This document shows positions 1 to 12,129 of a DNA stretch of 64,000 nt, piece by piece. The translations under genes and the position numbers were made by a program. The notes beneath the pieces were generated by a model. That model did not search any database and was not told the origin of the DNA. It saw only the letters and a list, made by a program, of their open reading frames with translations. Source of the DNA: an uncultured Thermoleophilia bacterium (GTDB lineage Bacteria > Actinomycetota > Thermoleophilia > UBA2241); NCBI GenBank assembly GCA_963696935.1, contig CAVOMB010000060.1:1704-65703 (forward strand). Reading direction: 5' to 3'. Within the stretch, counting starts at the first letter, position 1, and each line of letters begins with the position of its first letter.

Positions 1-416
1 GTGTGCTGCAGCAGTTCCATGTGCTCCTGCTCGACGCTGACGATGAACTTGCTCGGTTTGACCGAGTAGTCGATGTGGCCGACCTCCATCGAGTCGAACG
101 CGAAGGCGCGCTCGAAGAGCCGGACGGCCGTCTCGCGGCCGATCGGCGCGGCGATGCCGCTGGAGAGCCGCGAGCTGATGAGCGTGTTGGTGCCGCCGTC
201 CTTGGTCATCACGGCCTCGTGACCGCGCTCGACTCCCCAGACGCGGCTGGGGCAGCAGAACATGTCGACCAGGTAGTCGACCTCGTTCTCCTCGAGCACG
301 GGGATCTTGGCCTTGACGGCCGCGGCCTCGGACCCCTCGTCGATGTCCCGGCGGATCTCTCCCCGGGTCATCTGGACGGTGCTGCCGTCACCCATGCGCG
401 TGACGATGGAACTCAC
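1..416 (-). CDS. mtbB: Dimethylamine:corrinoid methyltransferase MtbB-like, 5' part (runs off the left edge)
   Basis: Not in the ORF track. Manual translation from GTG at 416 (GGAGG RBS upstream): VSSIVTRMGDGSTVQMTRGEIRRDIDEGSEAAA...LFERAFAFDSMEVGHIDYSVKPSK. The RMGDG and ERAF..D.ME.GHIDYS.KP blocks match the MtbB N-terminus as I recall it. Confidence 0.85.
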   Translation of the reverse strand, partial: MSSIVTRMGDGSTVQMTRGEIRRDIDEGSEAAAVKAKIPVLEENEVDYLVDMFCCPSRVWGVERGHEAVMTKDGGTNTLISSRLSSGIAAPIGRETAVRLFERAFAFDSMEVGHIDYSVKPSKFIVSVEQEHMELLQH

Positions 417-457
417 CGCTCACCCCCTCCACGGTCGCACTGATGTGGGAAAAGTAC

Positions 458-500
458 CCACCTAGGTGGAGAAGAATAGGTGCATATGGGGGGTTGTCAA
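458..500 (-). promoter_or_regulatory. sigma70-type promoter and palindromic operator for the mtbB-like gene
   Basis: TTGACA-N16-TATTCT on the minus strand (500-495, 478-473); perfect palindrome CCACCTAGGTGG at 458-469 just downstream. Confidence 0.55.
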
Positions 501-541
501 GTGCAGGAGGGGTTTTTCGCCCCCCCCGGTGGGGGCGGCCG

Positions 542-1228
542 TCAGGAAGCGGGCGCCGCCGCCTCCTGCGCCCCGGCGCTCGCGGCGATCTCCAGCAACT
601 GGACCATGGAGTTGCGCAGGAGGAACTCGAGGGCGGCCAGCGGCCGGCTCAGCTCGAAGCCGTCGGGGTTGAGCCCCGCCTGCACGGAGAGGCCGTCCGG
701 GATGGCGGCGATGAGCTCGGCGAGCCCCATGAGCATCTCGTTGGCCTCGGCCCCCGGCGCCGCGAGACCCAGCCACGTGAGGTTCTGGCGATACCACCAC
801 TCGTACAGGGCGAACAGGCGCCCGCGCAGCTCCGGGTCACGGAACGCATGAGGCAGGATGTCGAAGAAGCCGCGGAACGAGTCGGCGTCCACGATCATCC
901 GCCGGATGCCCTCCATGGCCGCGTGCAGCCGCTCCTCCTGCGGCACGCTCTCGACGTCGGCCGCCAGGCGCAGGCACTCGTCGTGGATGAGGGCGTCGGC
1001 GACCGCGATGATGAGCCCGGCCTTGTTGCCGAAGTTGTAGCGGATGGACGCCTTGTTGACGCCCGCCGCGGCGGCGACGTTCTCCAGCGTGACCGCCTCG
1101 AAGCCCTTGTCGGCCAAGAGTTGCTGCGCCGCCTTGAGGATCTTCTGCGCCGTCGCCGGCAGACTCTCCACGGGGTCCTCGAACGGGAACTGCAGGCGGC
1201 CCTTGGGCTTTGGCTGGGACGTGGTCAC
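542..1228 (-). CDS. TetR/AcrR family transcriptional regulator
   Basis: N-terminal HTH ILKAAQQLLADKGFEAVTLENVAAAAGVNKASIRYNFGNK. Confidence 0.9.
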   Translation of the reverse strand: MTTSQPKPKGRLQFPFEDPVESLPATAQKILKAAQQLLADKGFEAVTLENVAAAAGVNKASIRYNFGNKAGLIIAVADALIHDECLRLAADVESVPQEERLHAAMEGIRRMIVDADSFRGFFDILPHAFRDPELRGRLFALYEWWYRQNLTWLGLAAPGAEANEMLMGLAELIAAIPDGLSVQAGLNPDGFELSRPLAALEFLLRNSMVQLLEIAASAGAQEAAAPAS

Positions 1229-1345
1229 GGTCTCCCCTCACGGTCGGTACTACACGCTACACCGGACACTCCGGTCATCCACCCGGGTGGCGGGAACGCA
1301 CGTAGAGTACCCCCGCAGGACGCTACAGCCAACACCCGCGTGCTC

Positions 1346-2386
<1,041 letters not shown>

Positions 2387-2509
2387 GGGGCCTCCTTGGC
2401 CGGGCGTGCGGGTGCCGTGCGAGCGTATCGCAGGGAGACGCCTCCGCGGAACCGGCGGTGATGGGAGGCGACAGGCAGACCCGGCGGGCGGCCCGGACGC
2501 GCCGGCGGC

Positions 2510-3250
2510 CTACGCCCGCTGCGGCCGCGGCAGCCCGAAGAGCCGGTGCGCCGGCACCGGCGCGGGCGGCCGGCGGAGCCAGCGCCGGCGGGGCGGCCGC
2601 TGCGCGGGCAGCAGCCCGTCGGCGGCCAGGCGGCCGGCGCCAAGCAGCCTCGCGAGCGCGCTCCACAGCACGATGAGCGCGAGGCCGCCGAAGAGCAGCG
2701 CCTTGCGCAGGGCCGGCGCCGGCGTCCAGTACATGGCCACCTGGTCGGCCCACTCCTGACGCAGGTTGACGACCTGCGGCAGGTGGAAGAACCACTCGCC
2801 GTTCTGGCGTCCCGCAATCTGCACCCCGGGGTTCTCGAGCGCGTTGGCCGTCTTGCCCGGGTAGTCCACCCAGATGTGGTCGAGCGACATGTACAGGTGG
2901 TTGGGAATGCCCTTGGCGGTGAGGATGCTTGCGAGCACCACGGCGCGGCTCTCACAGTCGCCGGCGCCCGTCTTGAGCGCCTCGGCGGTGGTCGGAAAGT
3001 ACCAGGGCACGCCCGCCGACCGCCAGTCGTAGGCGTAGGGCACCTGCTTGTCGAGCACGTAGGCCTCGATGGCCTTGGGGTCGTTGGGGAGCCTCGCCGC
3101 GATGGCCGCGACCGCCTGCGGCTGGATCCGCGGCCGCATGGTGTTGCGCACGCTGCGCACGAGCGCCGTGGGGTCCGGATAGAGCATCACGAGGACCCAG
3201 GCGGCGAAGAGGAAGATGAGGGCACGGCGGGGCAACATCACTGACTGCAT
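2510..3250 (-). CDS. Membrane-anchored transglutaminase-like protein
   Basis: GDCESRA catalytic Cys motif, DHIWVDY, N- and C-terminal hydrophobic segments. Confidence 0.65.
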
Positions 3251-3289
3251 GATACCCGGGGCGGCGCGCGCGGCAGCGCGGTTCGCCGG

Positions 3290-4610
3290 CCCGGATGAAG
3301 CATGTGTGAAGAAGTGAGAAGGAAGCTCGGCGTCAGGCGTGGGACGAGCCGTCAGAGAGACGGGTGTTGCACTACGGACTTGAACTCAGGCAATCGCGTC
3401 AACGCCCGAGGACGATGTCGATGCCGAGCTTCCATCCGCGCTCCACCCTGGGGGCGGGCGCAGCGATGGCCTGTGCGGCAGCGGGGAGGCCGAGTCTTGT
3501 TGACGAGGGTCGCTGGGCGCCCTCAGCGCATCTGAGGCGGCTCTCCTTCGCTAGGCCGCTGCCCTGTACACCTCCCCACGGTCGAGGAGGGTCCAGGACA
3601 GTCCGAGCGGCTCGCGCGCGGCCGCCACCAGGGCGACCTTCTTGCCGCGGCGGTGGGCACGTGCGAGGTAGCGGTCGCGTAGCGGCCCAAGCAGGCGCAC
3701 GGCGACGTGCGCCGCCTCGACCAGGGCGCGGCGTGCGTGCGGCGAGCCGGCGCGCGTGATGCGCCCGTAGTGGGCGACGTCGGCCGAGGCGCGCACGCAG
3801 GGCACGAGCCCGAAGTAGGCGGAGACCTGGGCCGCGCGCGCGAAGCGGTGCGGGTCGCCGAGCTCGGCGACGAGCGTCGCGGAGGTGAGGAAGCCGACCC
3901 CGGGGATGGTCTGCAGCAGAGCCACCTCAGGGGCGCCGCGGAGGCGCTCGCGCAGCAGCGCCGTGAGCTCCGCCACGTGGGCGTCGGCCTCGTCGATGGT
4001 GGCGAACAGCAGCTCGACGAGCGTGCACGTGTGGGCGTCGAGCTCGAAGCTCGGCGAGCCAGACGCGGCCGCCTCTGCCGAAGAGGTCCGTGCCCGCGAA
4101 GCGCAGGCAGTGGCGCGTGAGCAGGTTGCTGATGCGGTTCTTGGCGGTGGTGCGCTGGGCGACGAAGCGCCAGCGGAGGCGCACGAGGCTCGCGCAGCTC
4201 GCGCACCTCGGCCGGCGGCGCCCAGGCCTCGGGCACGAGGTCGCAGCGCAGCAGATGGGCGAGGATGCGCGCGTCGATCTTGTCGGTCTTCACGCGCGCC
4301 GAGGCGATCGCCTTCACGTGCGAGGGGTGCGCCAGCTTGACGGAGGCGGCGCAGCTGCGCAAGGCGTCGTAGGTGCGGTGCCAGCTGCCGGTCGCCTCGA
4401 GGACCACGGCGCAGTCGCCCGGGACGATGCTCGCGACCTCTTCGGTCGGCAGGCTGCCCTCGCGGAGGATCTCTCCGACCGGGTCCATCAGGCAGTACTG
4501 GGTGCGCACCTTGTGCACGTCGAGTCCCAGGTAGTACGTTGGCATCGGCGCTCTCCTTCCCTGTCGGCGGTGGCTACGACGACAGTACGGGGAGCGTCCT
4601 GTTCATGCCA
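3290..4610 (-). mobile_element. IS110/IS1111-family insertion sequence (ends approximate)
   Basis: Frameshifted transposase flanked by a ~60 bp 5' and a ~260 bp 3' non-coding region; no terminal IRs or target duplication seen. Confidence 0.8.
3551..4545 (-). pseudogene. IS110 transposase, split over several frames
   Basis: RuvC-like YLGLDVHK / VLEATG / KTDKID in ORF 3523-4545; C-terminal LQTIPGVG..SAYFGLVP..S..GRITRAG in ORF 3551-3976; middle part in ORF 3927-4184. Confidence 0.9.
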
Positions 4611-4621
4611 TCTTGTTAGTC
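4601..4621 (-). other. Probable left half of an attC site (R'' plus L''-like box), interrupted at the IS110 end
   Basis: GACTAAC overlaps the parE TAA stop and is near-complementary to the cassette's 5' core GTTGGTC; followed by GCATGAAC. No matching right half found. Confidence 0.45.
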
Positions 4622-4924
4622 ACGCCCAACGTCGTCCGGCTCTGCGGGGAGCTGAGCCGAGTGCCAGGCCGCGACCACCCAGACCGCGTCCTCCTTGACG
4701 CGGTAGAAGAAGCGGTAGGGCGGAACGATGACCTCGCGGAACGCAAGGTCAGGGAACTCGGGTAGCACGCGCCCCGACTCCGGGTACTCGCCGAGGCGCG
4801 AGAGCGAGGCGGCAGCTCGGTCGCGCAAGTTGCGCGCTGCGACTGGGTCGTCAGCCGCAACGTAGGCGAGCGCCGCGAGGAACTGTTCGCGGGCGGCGGG
4901 CGTGAAGAGGACCCTGCGGCTCAA
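4616..4924 (-). CDS. RelE/ParE family toxin
   Basis: TTG start overlapping the antitoxin stop; VLFTPAAREQ..YVAADDPVAA..YPESGR..FREVIVPPYRFFYRV. Confidence 0.85.
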   Translation of the reverse strand: MSRRVLFTPAAREQFLAALAYVAADDPVAARNLRDRAAASLSRLGEYPESGRVLPEFPDLAFREVIVPPYRFFYRVKEDAVWVVAAWHSAQLPAEPDDVGRD

Positions 4925-5197
4925 GGCCTGCCGAGCAGGTGGTCGGCCTCGGCGAGTACCTCCGCGAGCGCGTGGCCGGAACCGGCCTCGATCTCGGCCT
5001 CGCCGCGGGCGAGCAGGCGCAGGATCTCGAAGCTCGTGCTGCGTGCGCTCGTAGGCCCGTGCGCTGACCACGACTGCCGCTGCGCGGCCGCGCTGGGTGA
5101 TGAACACCGGCTGCTGCGTGTCGGCGGCGCGCTTGATCACGCCAGAGGCGTCCTGACGCAGGTCGGTGATGGGGACGATGTCGGGTACTGATGCCAT
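4921..5197 (-). pseudogene. Phd/YefM antitoxin with a +1 frameshift near 5030 (possibly sequencing error)
   Basis: IVPITDLRQDASGVIKRAADTQQPVFITQRGRAAAVVVS; removing one T restores ..HELEILRLLARGEAEIEAG..ADHLLGRP*. Confidence 0.85.
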
Positions 5198-5212
5198 TGA
5201 AGCTACCTCCTA

Positions 5213-5232
5213 TGATACCGACAACGGTATCA
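5213..5232. promoter_or_regulatory. Palindromic operator upstream of phd-parE
   Basis: TGATACCG-acaa-CGGTATCA, perfect 8-bp inverted repeat just upstream of the RBS; typical of toxin-antitoxin autoregulation. Confidence 0.6.
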
Positions 5233-5266
5233 CTAACGTACTCTCGCGACCAGAGGAGAGGGCTGT

Positions 5267-5353
5267 GACCAACGCCCGGCGCATAAGCTGTGCGCCGCGC
5301 CGTCCCGGTCAATCTGGGCGCTCCGGCGCATCAGGTTGATGCACTTGTTGGGT
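5267..5353 (-). other. Integron attC site (hicBA cassette), 87 bp
   Basis: R'' ACCCAAC, L'' CATCAACCTGATGCGCC, L' GGCGCACAGCTTATG, R' GTTGGTC; arms pair with unpaired C and A (G and T on the bottom strand). Confidence 0.8.
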
Positions 5354-5360
5354 GGCGCGA

Positions 5361-5585
5361 TCACCGCGCCTCAAGAAGTTCGTCGATGGTCAGGTGGATG
5401 TCTGCGGCGATCTTGCGCAGCAGCGCGGGCGAGATGTCGCGACCGGCGTGGAAGGGCACCGTCGTCGTGCGGCCGTCGGGATGGCGGAACTGCTTGTGCG
5501 AGCCGCGCTGGCGGACTTCCGCGAAGCCGAGGGCCTCGAGTAGGGTGACGACCTGCCGCGGCTTGAGGACCGGCAGGCTGCCCAT
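5361..5585 (-). CDS. hicA: HicA family toxin
   Basis: LEALGFAEVRQRGSHKQFRHPDGRTTTVPFH (GSH motif). Confidence 0.92.
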   Translation of the reverse strand: MGSLPVLKPRQVVTLLEALGFAEVRQRGSHKQFRHPDGRTTTVPFHAGRDISPALLRKIAADIHLTIDELLEAR

Positions 5586-5591
5586 GGAAGG

Positions 5592-5807
5592 TCAGGCGAC
5601 CTGGATGGTGCGCACGTCGATGAACTCGGACTCGAGCGCCGGCTCACCGTCCTCGAGCAGCATCTCGATGACCTCGCGCAGGTTCTGCTGCAGTTCGTCG
5701 ATGTCGGCGCCCTGGCTGTGAGCGCCGGGCCAGCCCGGCACGTAGCCGATCAGCAGGTTGGTGTCGGGGTCACGCTCGACGACGAAGTTGTACGACCGCA
5801 TGGTCAC
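5592..5807 (-). CDS. hicB: HicB family antitoxin (short form)
   Basis: YNFVVERDPD..GYVPGWPGAHSQGADIDELQQNLREVIEMLLE. Confidence 0.9.
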   Translation of the reverse strand: MTMRSYNFVVERDPDTNLLIGYVPGWPGAHSQGADIDELQQNLREVIEMLLEDGEPALESEFIDVRTIQVA

Positions 5808-5875
5808 GCCTCCTTGCGACCCTTCTAAGATAGCCCACGCCCAGGCGAGGACGCCAGACGTACCGGCGAACGTCC

Positions 5876-5959
5876 GCCCAACGTGTTAGGCATGAGCGGC
5901 GGCCCATGCCCTGCTGGTTGATACTACCTGACGCCGTCCGCTCGATGCCTTTGTTGGAC
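5876..5959 (-). other. Integron attC site (GNAT cassette), 84 bp
   Basis: R'' GTCCAAC, L'' CATCGAGCGGACGGC, L' GCCGCCGCTCATG, R' GTTGGGC; canonical extrahelical G and T on the bottom strand; lies 2 bp after the GNAT stop. Confidence 0.88.
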
Positions 5960-5961
5960 GG

Positions 5962-6438
5962 CTAATGGCGAGTGTCGCAGTGTCGAATGAGCGTGACCAT
6001 CGGAATCCCGTCAGGAGTCGTCCAGCGGCTCTGCTGGGAGAAGCCGTGCGCAGCATACAGCTCTAGCGCCGGGATATTCTGGACCCCCGTCGAGACCGTG
6101 AGGTCTACGCAGGGATGAGTCTCGACGATGTCGCGCAGAAGCGCCGTCGCCAGTCCCTCGCGAAAGTGGGATGGGCTCACAACCAACGCGCTGATCTGTT
6201 GAAGCCCCGGCTCAACTTGCTCGAGTTCAGCAACGGCGGTGAGACCACCGTCCAGCCAGATGCCAAGGAAGCAGGCCTGAGCGCCCGCGATTTGCGCGGT
6301 TGTGCGACGCAGAGGCATGAAGTCCACAACGCCGAGAATGGCAGCCTCGACACGATAGGCAGCGAACATGACGGCCCGAATCGCGTCTGCCACATCCAAG
6401 GACGCATGGTCGAGCTGGACAATCTGGCTGGTGGTCAA
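5962..6438 (-). CDS. GNAT family N-acetyltransferase (gene cassette)
   Basis: ISALVVSPSHFREGLATALL acetyl-CoA motif A, NIPALELYAAHGF; lower GC and atypical codons. Confidence 0.88.
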   Translation of the reverse strand: MTTSQIVQLDHASLDVADAIRAVMFAAYRVEAAILGVVDFMPLRRTTAQIAGAQACFLGIWLDGGLTAVAELEQVEPGLQQISALVVSPSHFREGLATALLRDIVETHPCVDLTVSTGVQNIPALELYAAHGFSQQSRWTTPDGIPMVTLIRHCDTRH

Positions 6439-6449
6439 AGGTGGAGTCC

Positions 6450-6510
6450 GTCCAACTACTATTCTGCAGTCTGCGTAAGCGTGTTACGCAGCTGCCGACT
6501 TCTGCATAAC
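6450..6510 (-). other. attI-like recombination site heading the cassette array
   Basis: Core GTTGGAC (6456-6450) is the exact complement of the cassette's R''; upstream inverted repeat CTGCGTAA/TTACGCAG and direct repeat TGCAGAA; no attC-type hairpin. Confidence 0.45.
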
Positions 6511-6731
6511 AGCGTACCACGAGCCTACGAGAAGGTAGAGAGCAACCTGCATAGGACGTGTCGGGAGCCGTGGGAGTCCATCGAAGCGAAACACCGTAGA
6601 CGACCGACGAACGCAGGCGCGCTCCCACTGCACGGGACTGTGCGACGGCTCACCCAGGCGGAATGCCGCTTCGCGGGAACCTTGATGTGCCTACGGTCGG
6701 GTGAGCCTTCGGCGCACCCGACGGTGACCCG

Positions 6732-6767
6732 CCTCCGGCGAGCCGCAGAGCGGCTCGCCTCCGGAGG
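6732..6767 (-). terminator. GC-rich hairpin directly after the guaA stop
   Basis: CCTCCGGcGAGCCGC...CGGCTCgcctCCGGAGG inverted repeat; no U-tract. Confidence 0.4.
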
Positions 6768-8324
6768 TTACTCCCACTCGATGGTGCTGGGCGGCTTGCT
6801 CGAGACGTCGTAGACGACGCGGTTGACCTCTGGCACCTCGTTGATGATGCGCGAGGCCAGGGTCTCCAGCAGGTCGTAGGGGAGCCGCGCCCAGTCGGCC
6901 GTCATGGCGTCGTCGCTGGTGACGGCCCTGATGGCGATGGCGTAGCCGTAGGTGCGCTCGTCGCCCTGCACGCCGACGCTGCGGATGACGGGCAGGATCG
7001 CGAAGCACTGCCAGAGCTCGCGGTAGAGACCCGCCTTGCGGATCTCCTCCTGGACGATCGCGTCCGCGCGTTGCAGCACGTCCACGCGCTCGCGGGTGAT
7101 CTCGCCGATGATGCGGATGGCGAGGCCGGGACCCGGGAACGGCTGCCGCCAGACGATGTGCTCCGGCAGCCCGAGCTCCTCGCCCACGGCGCGGACCTCG
7201 TCCTTGAACAGCCAGCGCAGCGGCTCGACGAGCTCGAAGTCCATCTTCTCGGGAAGGCCGCCGACGTTGTGGTGGCTCTTGATCTTGGCGGCCTGCCGCG
7301 TGCCGCTCTCGATGACGTCGCTGTACAGGGTGCCCTGCACGAGGTACTTGGCGTCGGTGAGCTTGCGCGCCTCCTCCTCGAAGCAGCGGATGAACTCCTC
7401 GCCGATGATCTTGCGCTTGCGCTCCGGCTCGGTGACGCCGGCCAGCTTGTCCAGGAACCGGTCGCTGGCGTCGACCGACACCAGCGGGATGCCGAAGGTG
7501 CCGGAGAAGGTCTCGACGACGCGGTCGGCCTCGCGCATGCGCATCATGCCCTGGTCGACGAACACGCAGGTGAGCCGGTCGCCGATGGCCCGGTGCATGA
7601 GCAGCGCGGCCACGGACGAGTCGACGCCGCCGGAGAGGCCGAGGATCGCCTTGGACTCTCCGACCTGCTCGCGGATCTTGCGGATGGACTCCTCGACGAC
7701 CGCCTCGGGCGTGAAGGTGGGCGCGCAGCCGCAGGCCTTGTAGAGGAAGCTGCGCAGGACGTCCATACCCTTGGGCGTATGCACGACCTCGGGGTGGAAC
7801 TGCACGGCGTAGAAGCCGCGCTCCCGGTCCTCCATGGCGGCCACGGGAGCGCCGGGGGTGGACGCGAGCACCTCAAAGCCGGGCGGCGCCGCGGTGATGC
7901 TGTCGCGGTGGCTCATCCAGCACTGCTCTTCGGGGCGCATGCTCTCGAGCACGAGGCCCTTCTTGTGCACGCTCAGCGTGGTCTTGCCGAACTCGCTGAG
8001 GTCGGTGCGCGAGACGGTGCCGCCGAGCTCGAGGGCGACTCCCTGGGCGCCGTAGCAGATGCCCAGCACGGGGATGCCGAGCTCGAACAGCTCGGGATTG
8101 ACCCTGGGGGCGTCCTCGACGTACACGCTGGCAGGGCCGCCGGACAGGATGATGCCCTTGGGGTCATAGCTCTTGATGCGCTCGACGGACGCGTCGTGCG
8201 GGATCAGCTCGGAGTAGACCCTGCACTCGCGCACGCGACGCGCGATGAGCTGTCCGTACTGGGCCCCGTAGTCGAGGACCAGGACGGTGTCGAACCCCTT
8301 GACCTGCGGCGCACCCTGAACCAC
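6768..8324 (-). CDS. guaA: GMP synthase (glutamine-hydrolysing)
   Basis: [55 protein letters not shown]. Confidence 0.98.
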
Positions 8325-8333
8325 TGCGCCTCC

Positions 8334-9491
8334 TTATCCCATGCCTACGTCTTGTTCCTTCTGCAGCTTCTTGCCCTCGGTCATGAGCGCCGGCGCGACC
8401 ATGACCTCGGCCTTCTGGAACGAGGTCAGCGTCTCGTAGCCGCACGTCGCCATGCTGGTGCGCAGGGCGCCGAACAGGTTGCGCGTGCCGTCGTTCTCGT
8501 GCGCCGGGCCGAGCAGGATCTCCTCGAGCGTGCCCTTGGTGCCGGCCTTGACGCGCGTGCCGCGCGGCAGCTCGGGATGGAACGTCGCCATGCCCCAGTG
8601 GTAGCCACGGCCGGGCGCCTCGCTGGCGGTCGCCAGCGGCGAGCCGATCATGACCGCGTCGGCGCCGAGGGCGATGGCCTTGCTCACGTCGCCGCCGGTG
8701 CGCATGCCGCCGTCGGCGATGACGTTGCAGTACTGACCGGTCTCGAGCACGTGCTGGACGCGCGCCGCGGCGGCGTCGGCGATGGCCGTGGCCTGCGGGA
8801 CGCCGATGCCGAGCACGCCGCGCGTGGTGCAGGCGTGGCCCGGGCCGACGCCGACGAGCACGCCTACGGCGCCGGTGCGCATGAGGTGCAGCGTGGTGGC
8901 GTAGCTGGCCACGCCGCCCACGATCACCGGCACCTCGCACTCGCTGATGAACTTCCTGAGGTCGAGCGGCTCGACCCTGGTGCTGACGTGCTCGGCCGAG
9001 ACCACGGTGCCCTGGATGATGAGCACGTCGAGGCCGGCCTCGAGGGCGATCTTGTAATAGTCCTCCACCCGCTGCGGCGTGAGCGACGCGGCGGCGAGCA
9101 CGCCGCCGTCCTTGATCTCCTTGATGCGCTTGGCGACCAGCTCGGCCTTGATGGGCTCCTTGTAGATCTCCTGCATGGTGCGGGTCGCCGTGTCGTTGGG
9201 CAGCGACGCGATGCGGTCGAGCTGCTCGGCGGCGTTCTCGTAGCGGGTCTGGACGCCCTCGAGGTTGAGCACGGCGAGCCCGCCGAGCTTGCCCATGGTG
9301 ACGGCGAAGCCGGGGTCGACCACGCCGTCCATCGCCGAGGCGAGGCAGGGAATCGGCAGGGTGTGCTCGGCGAGCTTCCACGTTATGTCGACGTCTTCGG
9401 CGTCGCGGGTACGCCGGCTGGGCACGATGGCGATGTCGTCGAAGCCGTAGGCCCTGCGGCCCTTCTTGCCGCGGCCGATCTCTACTTCCAT
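8334..9491 (-). CDS. guaB: IMP dehydrogenase family protein (GuaB3-like, lacks CBS domains)
   Basis: MEVEIGRGKKGRRAYGFDDIAIVPSRRT, GVGPGHACTT, IADGG; ATG at 9491 with AGGAGG RBS. Confidence 0.9.
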   Translation of the reverse strand: MEVEIGRGKKGRRAYGFDDIAIVPSRRTRDAEDVDITWKLAEHTLPIPCLASAMDGVVDPGFAVTMGKLGGLAVLNLEGVQTRYENAAEQLDRIASLPNDTATRTMQEIYKEPIKAELVAKRIKEIKDGGVLAAASLTPQRVEDYYKIALEAGLDVLIIQGTVVSAEHVSTRVEPLDLRKFISECEVPVIVGGVASYATTLHLMRTGAVGVLVGVGPGHACTTRGVLGIGVPQATAIADAAAARVQHVLETGQYCNVIADGGMRTGGDVSKAIALGADAVMIGSPLATASEAPGRGYHWGMATFHPELPRGTRVKAGTKGTLEEILLGPAHENDGTRNLFGALRTSMATCGYETLTSFQKAEVMVAPALMTEGKKLQKEQDVGMG

Positions 9492-9635
9492 GCCGTCCTC
9501 CTGACAGGGGCGCGATGCGAGATAAACAAAAGACCCGGGCACGGACGTCCCTGGGTCTCTAGGCTCTGGGTGATGTCTTTTGCGCTTTGCGGTGGCAACG
9601 TGCTCCGACTCTACCAGCGCCCCAGCCGAGGGTCA
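9492..9635 (-). promoter_or_regulatory. guaB promoter and ~110-nt leader with intrinsic terminator (putative attenuator or riboswitch)
   Basis: TTGACC-N16-TAGAGT with extended TG (9635-9608); hairpin AGACCCAGGG..CCCGGGTCT (9558-9531) followed by TTTGTTT before the RBS. Confidence 0.6.
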
Positions 9636-9726
9636 ACGCGCGCGGGGTGGGCGCGCGGGGTGGCACAACGCGCGCGAAGAGCGGCGCCCGCGAGGCGCCG
9701 CGGACGCGACGGCGGCCGCGACCGCG

Positions 9727-10230
9727 TCAGGCCGCCTGCTCCCGGTCGGCCGGAAGGCGCAGGCGGATGCCGGCGGTCTCCTCGTAGAGGCGCACCGGCG
9801 TCATCTCCCCCGCGTCGTCGCCGAAGGCGGCGCGGGTGCGAGCGAACAACTGCTCGACGACTGCGCTGAGCTCGGCCGGCACGCCTGCGGCCCGGGCGAG
9901 GTCCATCGCCAGGCGCAGATCCTTGGCGGCGAGCGCCATCGTGAAGCCTTCCTCGTAGTCGCCGCGCGTAAGCAACGGGAGCATGTCGTGCGCGAGGAGA
10001 CGGCTGGTGGTCGGTCCCTCCGCCAGCGCGGTGTGCAGCACGCCGAGGTCCACTCCGGCGCGCGCGCCGATGGTGAGCACCTCGGCGATCGCGACCAGTT
10101 GGTCGAACCACAGCAGGTTGCGCATGAGTTTGACGACGTAGCCGGCCCCGTGGCCGCCGACGTGGAAGATCCGCTCGGGGTCGCCGAGGTGCTCGAGGAT
10201 GGGGCGGGCGACCGCGACGTCGGCGGCGTG
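9727..10230 (-). pseudogene. C-terminal half of an NAD(P)-dependent 3-hydroxyisobutyrate/6-phosphogluconate-dehydrogenase-like oxidoreductase
   Basis: ARPILEHLG..IFHVGGHGAGYVVKLMRN..GFTMALAAKDLRLA; the N-terminal Rossmann fold is missing. Confidence 0.8.
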
Positions 10231-10640
10231 GTCAGTGTGGCCTCACGGTCGTTCTCGTACACCGCCTGCTCGTCGCTGGCAGCCGGGTTCACCCAGACGG
10301 CGGCGATCAGCGCCAGTTCGGCGACCCTGCCGCCGTCGACGACCCCTTCCGCAACCGCATCGGCGACGCCGGCTGCGACGCCGGCCTGAGCGGCGCCCCA
10401 CGTGAGGTCCGCGTGGCGCCCGGGCTCGATCGCCGCCTTGTCGACGAACAGCGTCGGCGGCTGGACCGCGAGCCCCGGCTCCAGCACGGCGACAAAGGGC
10501 ACGTGGCCGGCGCGAGGCGTCGCCAGCGCCGTCGCCCACGCCGTCCCGGCCGGGCCGTCCCTCGGCCCGAGCACGACGTTGACGTGAGCAGCGTCGACCC
10601 CGTCACCGATGAAGGACTCGCCGGTCAGCATCTCGCTCAT
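10231..10640 (-). pseudogene. fae: Formaldehyde-activating enzyme (Fae) family, C-terminally truncated
   Basis: GESFIGDGVDAAHVNVVLG..PPTLFVDK..TWGAAQAGVAAGVADAV..LIAAVWVNP..VYEN; homology ends at ENDREAT. Confidence 0.8.
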
Positions 10641-11094
10641 ACACACCCTCCGCGCACCGGTGCCGGCTCTCGCCGGGGGCCGCGTCGCAGGCCTGCCTCT
10701 CCGTTGCCCGTCGGAGGGCCCGAAACGAATCACCGCTGACGATGCGACCGGCGCGAGCGGAGCGCCGGGAGCGCGACGGCAGGAAGCCCGTACGTGGCCG
10801 GGGCGAGCGAAGGTCCTAGGCAGACGACCGTCGCTCGCCCCTTGGAGGCCAGGCAAGGCAAATGAGCATCTGGGACGTGACCGGGCGCGCCTCCTTGTGG
10901 GTGATTGGGGAGGTCCCGCCGGACCAATCGGGAGCTCGACGCGCTCCCCGAGGAATCTTCGCGCGACCCGGCGGAATCTCTGCCGTCCCTAGAAGCATCG
11001 TCGTACGCCTTCCCCACCGCGATAGGGATACGCCCCCGAATCGCGAGGGACAGGCGGGCGCGGCGCCTCTGCCGGCACGCCGCGCCCGCCGCTG

Positions 11095-12129
11095 CTACCT
11101 GCCTTCCGGCCGACGCCGGCGCAGGAGGGCGAAACCCATGACGAGCACGATGGCCACGAGGCCGCCCATGAGCCCGTACATCAGCCAGGACGTCTTGGAC
11201 CCTCCGCCACTCTCGGCCGGCCCGACCAAACGCTCTCCAAGCTTCTTCGCTTCGGCACTGCCAACGGTGACGTTGCCCGACCAGGTCGCCACCTTGGTGT
11301 CGTCCGCGTAGCGGATCTCGACCGTCGCGGGATACGTGCCCTCCGAGGGATTCCTCTTCCACTTGACCGGATAGTCGGTCTTCGCCGTCGGTATCATGGT
11401 GTCGAGAGAGAACTTGTCGCTGAACGCGGCGTCCGACAGCGAGAGTGAGCCGTTGCCCGTCGTCGCCGCCGTGCCGGTATTCGCGATGGCAATGCTCAAG
11501 TACATGCCGTCGGGACGCGGCGTGGCCATGACCCCCGAGATGACGATCTCAGGAACGGCCGGACCCGGCGTGACGACCTCAACGGCAAGCACGCGGCGCT
11601 CGACGTAGAGGATGCGAGTCCCAGCTTGGTTGGCGGCGGCGGCCGTCGTGAACTTGGTCGTCGCGGAAGGTTCCCACACTGACAGGCCCCCGACATGCTC
11701 GCCCGAGGAGGCGTCAGATGGCACGCTGACGACGAAGGGCACCTTCGCCGATGCTCCCGGAGCGAGCTTCACCGCAGAGCGGGACACCGCGATCCACGTG
11801 CCGACCGCAGCAGAAGTGGCGCCGACATCCGCATAGTCCACGCCGCCATACACCGACGCCCCGCCGTCATTCGAGACGATCCGTAGTGATTGAGCCTTCT
11901 TCGACGTGTTGGTGATGAGAAGGACCCGGGACACCGAAGCGCCGGGCGCCGCGTTGAACTTGAAGTAGCCGAACTCGGCACCGAGAGAGCCGGGAAGCGG
12001 CTGCGCCGTGAAGCCGATGCCTGCCGCCCGGGCGGCGACCGGAGCCAGGAACACGCCCGCGAACGCGGCGAGCACGAGCACTGCCCGGAGAAGTCGCCGG
12101 CCTGACAGGAGTCTGAATCTACGAGTCAT
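11095..12129 (-). CDS. DUF916/DUF3324 WxL-interacting cell-surface protein (CscA-like)
   Basis: Signal peptide, GYFKFNAAPGAS, VKLAPGAS.KVPFVVSVP..GEHVGG, C-terminal TM followed by RRRR. Confidence 0.75.
   Translation of the reverse strand: MTRRFRLLSGRRLLRAVLVLAAFAGVFLAPVAARAAGIGFTAQPLPGSLGAEFGYFKFNAAPGASVSRVLLITNTSKKAQSLRIVSNDGGASVYGGVDYADVGATSAAVGTWIAVSRSAVKLAPGASAKVPFVVSVPSDASSGEHVGGLSVWEPSATTKFTTAAAANQAGTRILYVERRVLAVEVVTPGPAVPEIVISGVMATPRPDGMYLSIAIANTGTAATTGNGSLSLSDAAFSDKFSLDTMIPTAKTDYPVKWKRNPSEGTYPATVEIRYADDTKVATWSGNVTVGSAEAKKLGERLVGPAESGGGSKTSWLMYGLMGGLVAIVLVMGFALLRRRRPEGR

Follow-up and report, generated by a model that had tools for sequence, protein, structure and literature searches.

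A probable ectopic integron array without its own integrase beside guaA in an uncultured Thermoleophilia bacterium

The DNA analysed here (the window) is a stretch of 64,000 nt on contig C60 of the metagenome-assembled genome (MAG) of an uncultured Thermoleophilia bacterium; next to guaA it carries an array of integron-type gene cassettes. Coordinates are those of the window unless another contig is named; G000 designates its own genome, G001–G024 its congeners, and L followed by a number a fetched locus or contig. A prediction made earlier from the letters of the sequence had described three co-oriented units (GNAT; hicB-hicA; phd-parE), each bounded by a pair of core boxes, and all of them were found at the positions it gave. 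Read on the minus strand from guaA (8324 down to 3417), the order is native spacer, 130 nt of untraced DNA, a predicted insertion site (attI-B), GNAT, attC1, hicB-hicA, attC2, phd-parE, the R'' box of a third attC and an insertion sequence (IS). The features, including those beyond the IS, are as follows (ORF, open reading frame).

6768–8324, minus strand: guaA (GMP synthase), native flanking gene, co-oriented with the array (ORF; synteny with six congeners)
6665–6767: native spacer with hairpins, between guaA and the block
6535–6664, no strand: right border of the block (130 nt), flanked by attI-B and by the native 3' region of guaA, with no integrase remnant
6446–6534, minus strand: attI-B, predicted insertion site with no adjoining integrase (alignment with attI regions 3' of intI)
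5882–6455, minus strand: cassette 1, GNAT ORF (5962–6438) and attC1 (Pfam Acetyltransf_1/7/10)
5876–5959, plus strand (recombinogenic bottom strand): attC1, 84 nt, GCCCAAC...GTTGGAC (fold, covariance model)
5273–5881, minus strand: cassette 2, hicB (5592–5807), hicA (5361–5585) and attC2 (Pfam HicA_toxin, 71.6 bits; weak HicB-like match)
5267–5353, plus strand: attC2, 87 nt, of a genus-typical sequence type, slightly decayed, with three stem mismatches
4615–5272, minus strand: cassette 3, phd (4921–5197) and parE (4616–4924), ending in R'' GACTAAC (Pfam PhdYeFM, ParE_toxin)
4615–4621, minus strand: R'' box GACTAAC of the third attC (attC3), the remainder of which is missing
3417–4614, minus strand: truncated IS1111-attC-like element (IS110/IS1111 family) with a frameshifted DEDD transposase at 3523–4545 (Pfam DEDD_Tnp_IS110 and Transposase_20)
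3389–3429, minus strand: 41-nt tail of a mazF-type cassette, comprising C-terminal codons, the stop codon and spacer sequence as far as the GCC of its R'' box
3345–3388, minus strand: conserved motif (GCC)TGAGTTCAAGTCCGTAGTGCAACAC..., at the position expected for the R''-L'' half of the next attC
3290–3344, no strand: left border of the block, with no match to the guaA loci of relatives or to the rest of the genome

Cassette 1 starts with GTTGGAC (6456–6450), the exact complement of its own R'' box GTCCAAC (5959–5953). The boxes of cassette 2 (GTTGGGC, 5882–5876, and R'' ACCCAAC, 5353–5347) and those of cassette 3 (GTTGGTC, 5273–5267, and R'' GACTAAC, 4621–4615) each pair with one mismatch. 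Two full attCs and one R'' remnant are thereby present within 1.4 kb; of the three cassette units originally proposed, two end in a complete attC, but the third retains just its R'' box, with the IS directly after it.

Folded as single-stranded DNA, the attC1 region (5874–5961) gave z = -4.0 for the plus strand and -4.7 for the minus strand relative to shuffled sequences, with exactly two unpaired bases, a T and a G, on the 3' arm of the plus strand. These two bases identify the plus strand as the recombinogenic bottom strand, the ORFs lying on the opposite (top) strand, as in canonical cassettes. The architecture of attC2 (5267–5353) is the same, with three stem mismatches and z = -1.6 and -2.6, and the extrahelical G and T predicted for the bottom strand were seen in the DNA folds of both sites. 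Both sites, of 84 and 87 nt, fall in the 57–141 nt range and have the R''(RYYYAAC)-L''...L'-R'(GTTRRRY) boxes of attCs. attC2 is homologous to C87:1526–1615, C87:1993–2082 and C51:11007–11096; the attC1 subtype also occurs in arrays of G004, G017 and G020. A fourth attC suspected at 3397–3509 was rejected: its fold was at shuffle level (z = -0.2 and -0.7), the attC model described below did not match it, and it consists mostly of IS and mazF cassette fragment.

A covariance model, R1, was built from five attCs of the window's own genome, attC1 and attC2 among them. The limits of its two window matches are exactly 5876–5959 (79 bits) and 5267–5353 (77.8 bits), matches that are unavoidable for training members. 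In 38 integrase loci of other Actinomycetota MAGs, the presence of an IntI homolog being the sole reason for their choice, R1 gave 108 matches, and all of these lay 3' of intI on the strand opposite to it. Another 62 matches were obtained in 14 further congener loci, nearly all in arrays beside intI or attI, and genome-wide searches gave 2–56 sites per genome in 22 of the 24 congeners. There were no matches in 60 kb of congener guaA loci, and none in 16 integrase-less genomes from other families of the class. Among the 108 independent sites, compensatory changes were observed in 14 of the 16 L-box pairs, with the AAC/GTT pairs nearly invariant across these related sequences. Pairing was found in 94.7% of L-box cells and 90.6% of the whole structure, compared with 22–43% when partners were slid; double changes numbered 393 versus 113 in shuffles. 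The alignment behind these figures was fitted to the model and so favours the structure. Isolated attCs far from any array or integrase were also noted in the window's own genome, at C51:11007–11096 (minus strand, 87 bits) and C26:1478–1544 (34 bits), as were decayed attC half-sites at C101:81249–81338 and C33:21936–22026; these may be stray single-cassette insertions.

The array appears to be headed by a real attI that has no integrase next to it, the role of attI-B being assigned by homology. It contains three direct repeats, TATGCAGGTTGC at 6542–6553 (degenerate, just beyond the aligned core), TTATGCAGAAG at 6499–6509 and TTACGCAGACTGCAGAA at 6462–6478, followed by tagta and the crossover box GTTGGAC (6450–6456), in which the predicted G/TT cut lies between 6456 and 6455. 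The conserved attI pattern is TTAYGCAG(A/T)CTGC, TTATGCAGAAG and TTAYGCAGACTGCAGAA, then tagta/GTTRRRY. attI-B aligns with the DNA directly 3' of intI in G011, G018, G013 and on contig C87 of its own genome, and with the heads of integrase-less arrays in G017, G015 and G002. The 15-mer GCAGTCTGCGTAAGC occurs genome-wide only in attI-B and 3' of intI on C87; its reading as a single point of homology between the window and C87 was wrong, as it is one of the three attI repeats, the third in the window and the first on C87. Neither tblastn nor DNA alignment to IntI and to intI 3' ends detected a remnant of intI upstream of attI-B, the scores staying at the level of shuffled controls; no intI or remnant of it was found in window 1–12000.

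The MAG (3.04 Mb in 115 contigs, 82.6% complete, 3.2% contamination) does encode an intact integron integrase, at C87:2912–3856 (TIGR02249, 468.6–469.1 bits against a cut-off of 265). The protein aligned end to end with VchIntIA (Vibrio cholerae IntIA, PDB 2A3V; E = 6e-90), IntI-specific insertion included. It is the only integron integrase of the genome, and contig C60 has none. The statement that the array lacks an integrase therefore holds for the window and its contig but not for the genome, where the search that had been proposed for an intI with the extra insertion led to C87. Downstream of the intI stop codon, C87 carries an attI (attI-A), a doc-type toxin-antitoxin cassette, two attCs of the attC2 sequence family, two more cassettes and an IS3 element at the contig end; intI points in the same direction as its cassettes, the layout called 'inverted-integrase'. 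The GC content of C87 (0.694, against 0.696 for the genome) and its flanks, which are 86–95% identical to a Thermoleophilia MAG and 91% to congener G017, indicate that it is not a contaminant. The main integron locus of the genus lies elsewhere than at guaA; in G017, attI and attCs persist beside the genes that flank C87's integron, without intI. Two further observations concern C87. The IS3-family element (C87:1–1255, orfA/orfB) interrupts the main array at the contig end, and the main array recovered is partial. The first cassette of the main integron (C87:2139–2787; L001 680–1375) encodes an AbrB-type antidote and a Doc toxin that read against the direction of the array; it recurs at 86% identity deeper in the G002 array (L192 4991–5639).

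The whole 3.4-kb block (about 3290–6664) is private to the window's genome, and six congeners have an empty site at guaA. In these, the gene found at window 2510–3250 and guaA are 24–190 bp apart (1.4 kb in G009), and both window flanks align. The left flank common to the six ends at 3258–3288 and BLAST alignments resume at 6690–6769; a comparison by eye with G022, the closest congener, puts the return of native sequence at about 6664. This restoration of synteny on both sides is a strong argument against a chimeric join, which the original prediction had offered as a possible refutation. The left border (3290–3344) is either a lineage-specific spacer or imported DNA. Arrival of the block by an IntI crossover at the attI core was ruled out: the full attI arm is present and the breakpoints lie outside the core. 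No tRNA was found in window 1–12000, and the block is therefore not a tRNA-targeted island. The window guaA is 58–68% identical to other Actinomycetota guaA genes, and both it and the integrase are closest to Thermoleophilia and other Actinomycetota MAGs, in agreement with the host first proposed. Just 3' of guaA, at 6691–6740, lies a GC-rich hairpin pair. It belongs to a dispersed repeat, of which congeners such as G017 have up to 8 copies per genome, and either resembles a repetitive extragenic palindrome (REP) or is a terminator module.

Two of the three cassettes recur in other arrays of the genus. The phd-parE cassette is present at 85–88% identity in integrase-linked arrays of G018, G006, G001, G020, G016 and G021, with 0.2–23 kb separating it from intI; G014 has it too, as does G003, in which no intI was found. 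In G021 it stands first at attI, and its match to the window breaks off at 5273, where G/TT is predicted. In G022 the hicBA cassette (87% identity) is first at attI; its homology with the window, from 5882 to 5269, covers one cassette to within a few bases and begins at the GTT box. Overall, at least nine congeners have hicBA or phd-parE in their arrays, at varied positions and beside varied neighbours, and the homology breaks off at 5273 and 5882. The GNAT cassette had no copy in 40 relatives; a GNAT gene 92% identical to it was found on metagenome contigs L205 and L206, with an attC (71 bits) directly after it. This cassette adjoins attI, its stretch is lower in GC (about 0.63–0.66 versus 0.70 for the contig) and its attC subtype is unlike that of attC2. 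New cassettes enter integrons at attI. The position of GNAT next to attI and its absence from relatives fit this rule, and it would be the newest arrival.

Elsewhere in the genus, at least 56 attCs extend over about 28 kb beside intI in G016 (C7:38220–65958), and in G001 a contig other than that of its split intI carries a second array (C12:254189–264386), with 17 attCs or more. Genes for the integrase with in-frame stops or split frames were observed in G022 (C4:258598–259551), G024 (C279:2723–3676), G001 (C8), G013 (C3) and G020 (C14); judged from these reading frames, integrase decay appears to be recurrent in the genus.

Taken together, these data make it very probable that the segment 4615–6534 is an ectopic integron platform without an integrase of its own, within a genus-wide chromosomal integron system of the 'inverted-integrase' type whose IntI, in this genome, is encoded on C87. 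The array is a cluster of attC sites lacking an integron-integrase (CALIN) with an attI: an ordinary integron in kind, unusual in its host, small and partly decayed. The original prediction, of either a CALIN or a decayed integron whose host is Thermoleophilia-like, is borne out by the attI homolog, by the IntI of the genome and by the IntI and attC arrays common in the genus and the class. By the mechanism established for integrons, IntI supplied in trans would bind the folded bottom strand (the plus strand) of the attCs, marked by the extrahelical T and G; it would excise cassettes by attC x attC recombination and insert circular cassettes at the G/TT of attI. The two toxin-antitoxin cassettes probably stabilise the array, and read-through from guaBA is a possible source of cassette expression.

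The rival that deserves most attention is a history of decay in place, in which a second complete integron was acquired at guaA and later lost its integrase there, the array being a decayed integron and not a relocated fragment. The G017 locus of the C87 type, with attI and attCs and no integrase, offers a precedent, as do the split or stop-containing intI genes of G001, G013, G020, G022 and G024; moreover, attI-B is closer to the G011 attI (82% identity) than to attI-A of its own genome, which suggests a separate origin. However, neither tblastn nor DNA alignment detected an integrase remnant (shuffle level) in the 130 nt that separate attI-B from the native flank, and the site is empty in all six congeners compared. 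We consider such a history possible but doubtful. It is very improbable that the array was built up at a non-classical genomic site (attG) downstream of guaA through successive insertions of single cassettes by IntI: the genome does possess an IntI that could act in trans, and the single attCs at C51:11007–11096 and C26:1478–1544 look like strays, but at the head of the array stand about 90 nt of bona fide attI, with its three conserved repeats, and not the native guaA spacer of the six relatives, and the block includes non-cassette DNA at both borders as well as an IS.

An assembly artefact, whether a chimeric join or a contaminant fragment in contig C60, might be suspected in a MAG of 115 contigs with 3.2% contamination, the more so as the block is somewhat lower in GC. 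Two precise mis-joins that restore synteny would be required, since the flanks are contiguous in six congeners, and attC2, attI-B and two-thirds of the cassettes are of the genus-specific type; an error of this kind is highly unlikely. Finally, the locus could be no integron at all and merely an islet of toxin-antitoxin and GNAT genes, with GTT cores arising by chance and ordinary terminator or REP hairpins. Hairpins are abundant in high-GC genomes, a REP-like one is present at 6691–6740, and Rfam gave no match. Against this, the hairpins have attC-specific R and L boxes and extrahelical bases, and they match 170 sites almost solely in integrase-adjoining arrays; the same cassettes occur in integrase-linked arrays with breakpoints at G/TT, and 16 integrase-less genomes had no model match. 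Comparative data refute this explanation, to which we give almost no credence.

Several points weigh against the interpretation of the segment as an ectopic platform served from C87. The integrase and the window array are on separate contigs of an incomplete MAG, and their co-occurrence in one cell rests on binning and on the congeners. The border pieces 3285–3350 and 6530–6670 had no match in the guaA loci of relatives or elsewhere in the genome, leaving the source of the block untraced. Only two complete attCs are left, one of which, attC2, has three stem mismatches and a weak bottom-strand z-score; R1 was trained on the very window sites that it matches, and an Rfam scan of 3000–8000 returned chance matches and no attC family. 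That the cassettes are mobile is suggested by comparison only, no recombination event or excised circle having been seen. A scan of 4500–6800 for the sigma-70 consensus found none, a result that says little for actinobacterial promoters. In comparison with three intact homologs, phd carries a +1 frameshift (an extra T within 5023–5035) that fuses it to parE, and the IS transposase (3523–4545) is frameshifted as well; the array may be decaying, or the MAG may contain indel errors, of which these two frameshifts are possible instances.

At the distal end of the array, the IS begins right after the R'' box GACTAAC of attC3, and its right end is short by about 98 nt. The left subterminal repeat CATGAACAGGA is at 4597–4607. 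Another Thermoleophilia MAG has, within its integron array, an IS 85% identical to the window copy (L012 5426–6717), exactly between an R''-like box and an attC L'' arm; this copy is intact, with 11-nt subterminal inverted repeats (CATGAAAAGGA). The segment 4594–4614, to which alignment with G018 extends, had been a candidate for the L'' arm of attC3 and was rejected, as the L012 copy shows that the left end of the IS resembles an L'' arm. Beyond the IS, the mazF cassette end (3389–3429) is 95–100% identical to cassette ends in arrays of G001, G003, G005 and G024 and 93% identical to one in G018; in G001 the same mazF gene end follows the phd-parE cassette after about 0.7 kb. The joint between the IS right end and the mazF remnant, with 12 nt of microhomology, is a deletion joint. 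The simplest history, as read from these alignments, would be that an IS1111-attC-like element inserted between R'' and L'' of attC3, and that a microhomology-mediated deletion then removed the right end of the IS, the rest of attC3 and most of the following mazEF cassette. The motif GCCTGAGTTCAAGTnCGnAGTGCAnCAC, of about 40 nt, stands where the R''-L'' half of an attC is expected in three genomes: in the window (3345–3388), in the G022 array (L190, about 7220–7265) and in G002 (L189 10887–10915). In G022 it replaces the left half of an attC, and a normal right arm and GTTGGCA come next. An unusual attC subtype, or the footprint left by a further attC-targeting element, may account for the motif.

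The distribution of IntI, counted as proteins above the curated cut-off, was determined in three samples: genus (25 genomes), class (401) and phylum (401). IntI was present in 14 of the 25 genus genomes, in 52 of the class sample (13%; 14 of 120 genera) and in 24 of the phylum sample (6%; 20 of 248 genera). Contigs of 1–3 Mb carry some of these genes, and a single-contig genome carries one. A quick tree has a branch with a Shimodaira-Hasegawa-like approximate likelihood ratio (SH-aLRT) of 100, on one side of which 38 of the 41 rows are Actinomycetota. The nearest relatives outside the phylum, at 65–74% identity, are IntI proteins of Chlorobi, Ignavibacteria, Desulfuromonadia and Brocadia. One MAG labelled 'Ignavibacteriaceae' and two labelled 'Eubacteriales' fall inside the Actinomycetota clade, and the Actinomycetota MAG L044 falls in the other clade (loci L026, L021, L053 and L044); either mis-binning or transfer between phyla would account for these placements.

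In a survey of complete genomes, IntegronFinder 2.0 reported zero complete integrons in Actinobacteria (PMC9024848), and a 2026 study of permafrost MAGs speaks of a 'virtual absence' of integrons in Actinomycetota (PMC13323075). One review names Actinobacteriota among integron-bearing phyla, without detail (PMC8618304). Our search of the literature for integrons of Thermoleophilia or Actinomycetota found no dedicated description. The idea of an unrecognised actinobacterial integron system is fair with respect to the literature searched; the system belongs, however, to the known 'inverted-integrase' type and extends a known kind without constituting a new one. More broadly, we find it rather likely, with some reserve, that Actinomycetota, notably Thermoleophilia and Coriobacteriia, have their own long-resident clade of inverted-integrase integrons, with ectopic attI-array modules served in trans by a single IntI and with their own attC-targeting IS1111-like parasites; the textbook absence would then be an artefact of sampling cultured genomes.

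The host matters, as complete integrons are essentially missing from Actinobacteria in published surveys. Cassettes are clearly shuffled between species. Together with the frequency of IntI and the size of the arrays, this opens a large pool of unexplored cassettes among actinobacteria of soil and sediment, and it offers a natural test of how IntI works in a monoderm-type host of high GC content; attC-targeting IS elements would follow integrons across phyla. To this the window adds a specific case, an attI-headed array apart from the integrase with clean empty-site controls.

Several known systems bear comparison. Inverted-integrase chromosomal integrons were reportedly described by Boucher et al. 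in 2007 and Nemergut et al. in 2008, for example in Treponema denticola, Chlorobium and other non-proteobacterial lineages. Two types of integron, differing in integrase orientation, have been described (PMC13323075). The present system resembles the inverted-integrase type in that intI is co-oriented with the cassettes and upstream of attI (C87), that IntI has the integron-specific insertion, and that the attCs, here of about 60–130 nt (84 and 87 in the window), have AAC/GTT boxes and extrahelical bases. It differs in its high-GC Actinomycetota host, in the IntI clade dominated by Actinomycetota, in an attI with three TTAYGCAG repeats and in the window copy, which has no adjoining integrase.

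The CALIN concept is said to come from Cury et al. in 2016. CALINs are defined as clusters of attC sites without an integron-integrase (Neron et al., 2022; PMC9024848). Like them, the window array has at least two attCs close together, no intI on its contig and co-oriented cassettes; unlike them, it retains a full attI, on which the CALIN definition is silent, and the cognate IntI is elsewhere in the genome. The sedentary chromosomal integrons of Vibrio and of Xanthomonas (for the latter, PMC12444791) resemble the system in their chromosomal location throughout a genus, in the homogeneity of their attCs, in their many toxin-antitoxin cassettes and in how often intI has decayed. The present system is distinguished from them by the orientation of intI, by arrays that reach at least 56 attCs, and by the window array, a small copy at an ectopic site apart from the main locus.

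The IS1111-attC group is said to have been defined by Tetu and Holmes in 2008 and by Post and Hall in 2009, with ISPa21, ISPst6 and ISKpn4 as members. The group is also treated in PMC11187229. The window IS has in common with it the DEDD transposase, the subterminal inverted repeats, insertion at one attC end and a fixed orientation, in two independent arrays; its actinobacterial host sets it apart, as does the window copy being truncated and frameshifted. Insertion of cassettes outside integrons at attG sites is known here from a passage of PMC13323075 that cites Loot et al. (2024). The window array is like such insertions in that its cassettes are away from the integrase locus, but it is headed by an attI and not by a genomic GTT site.

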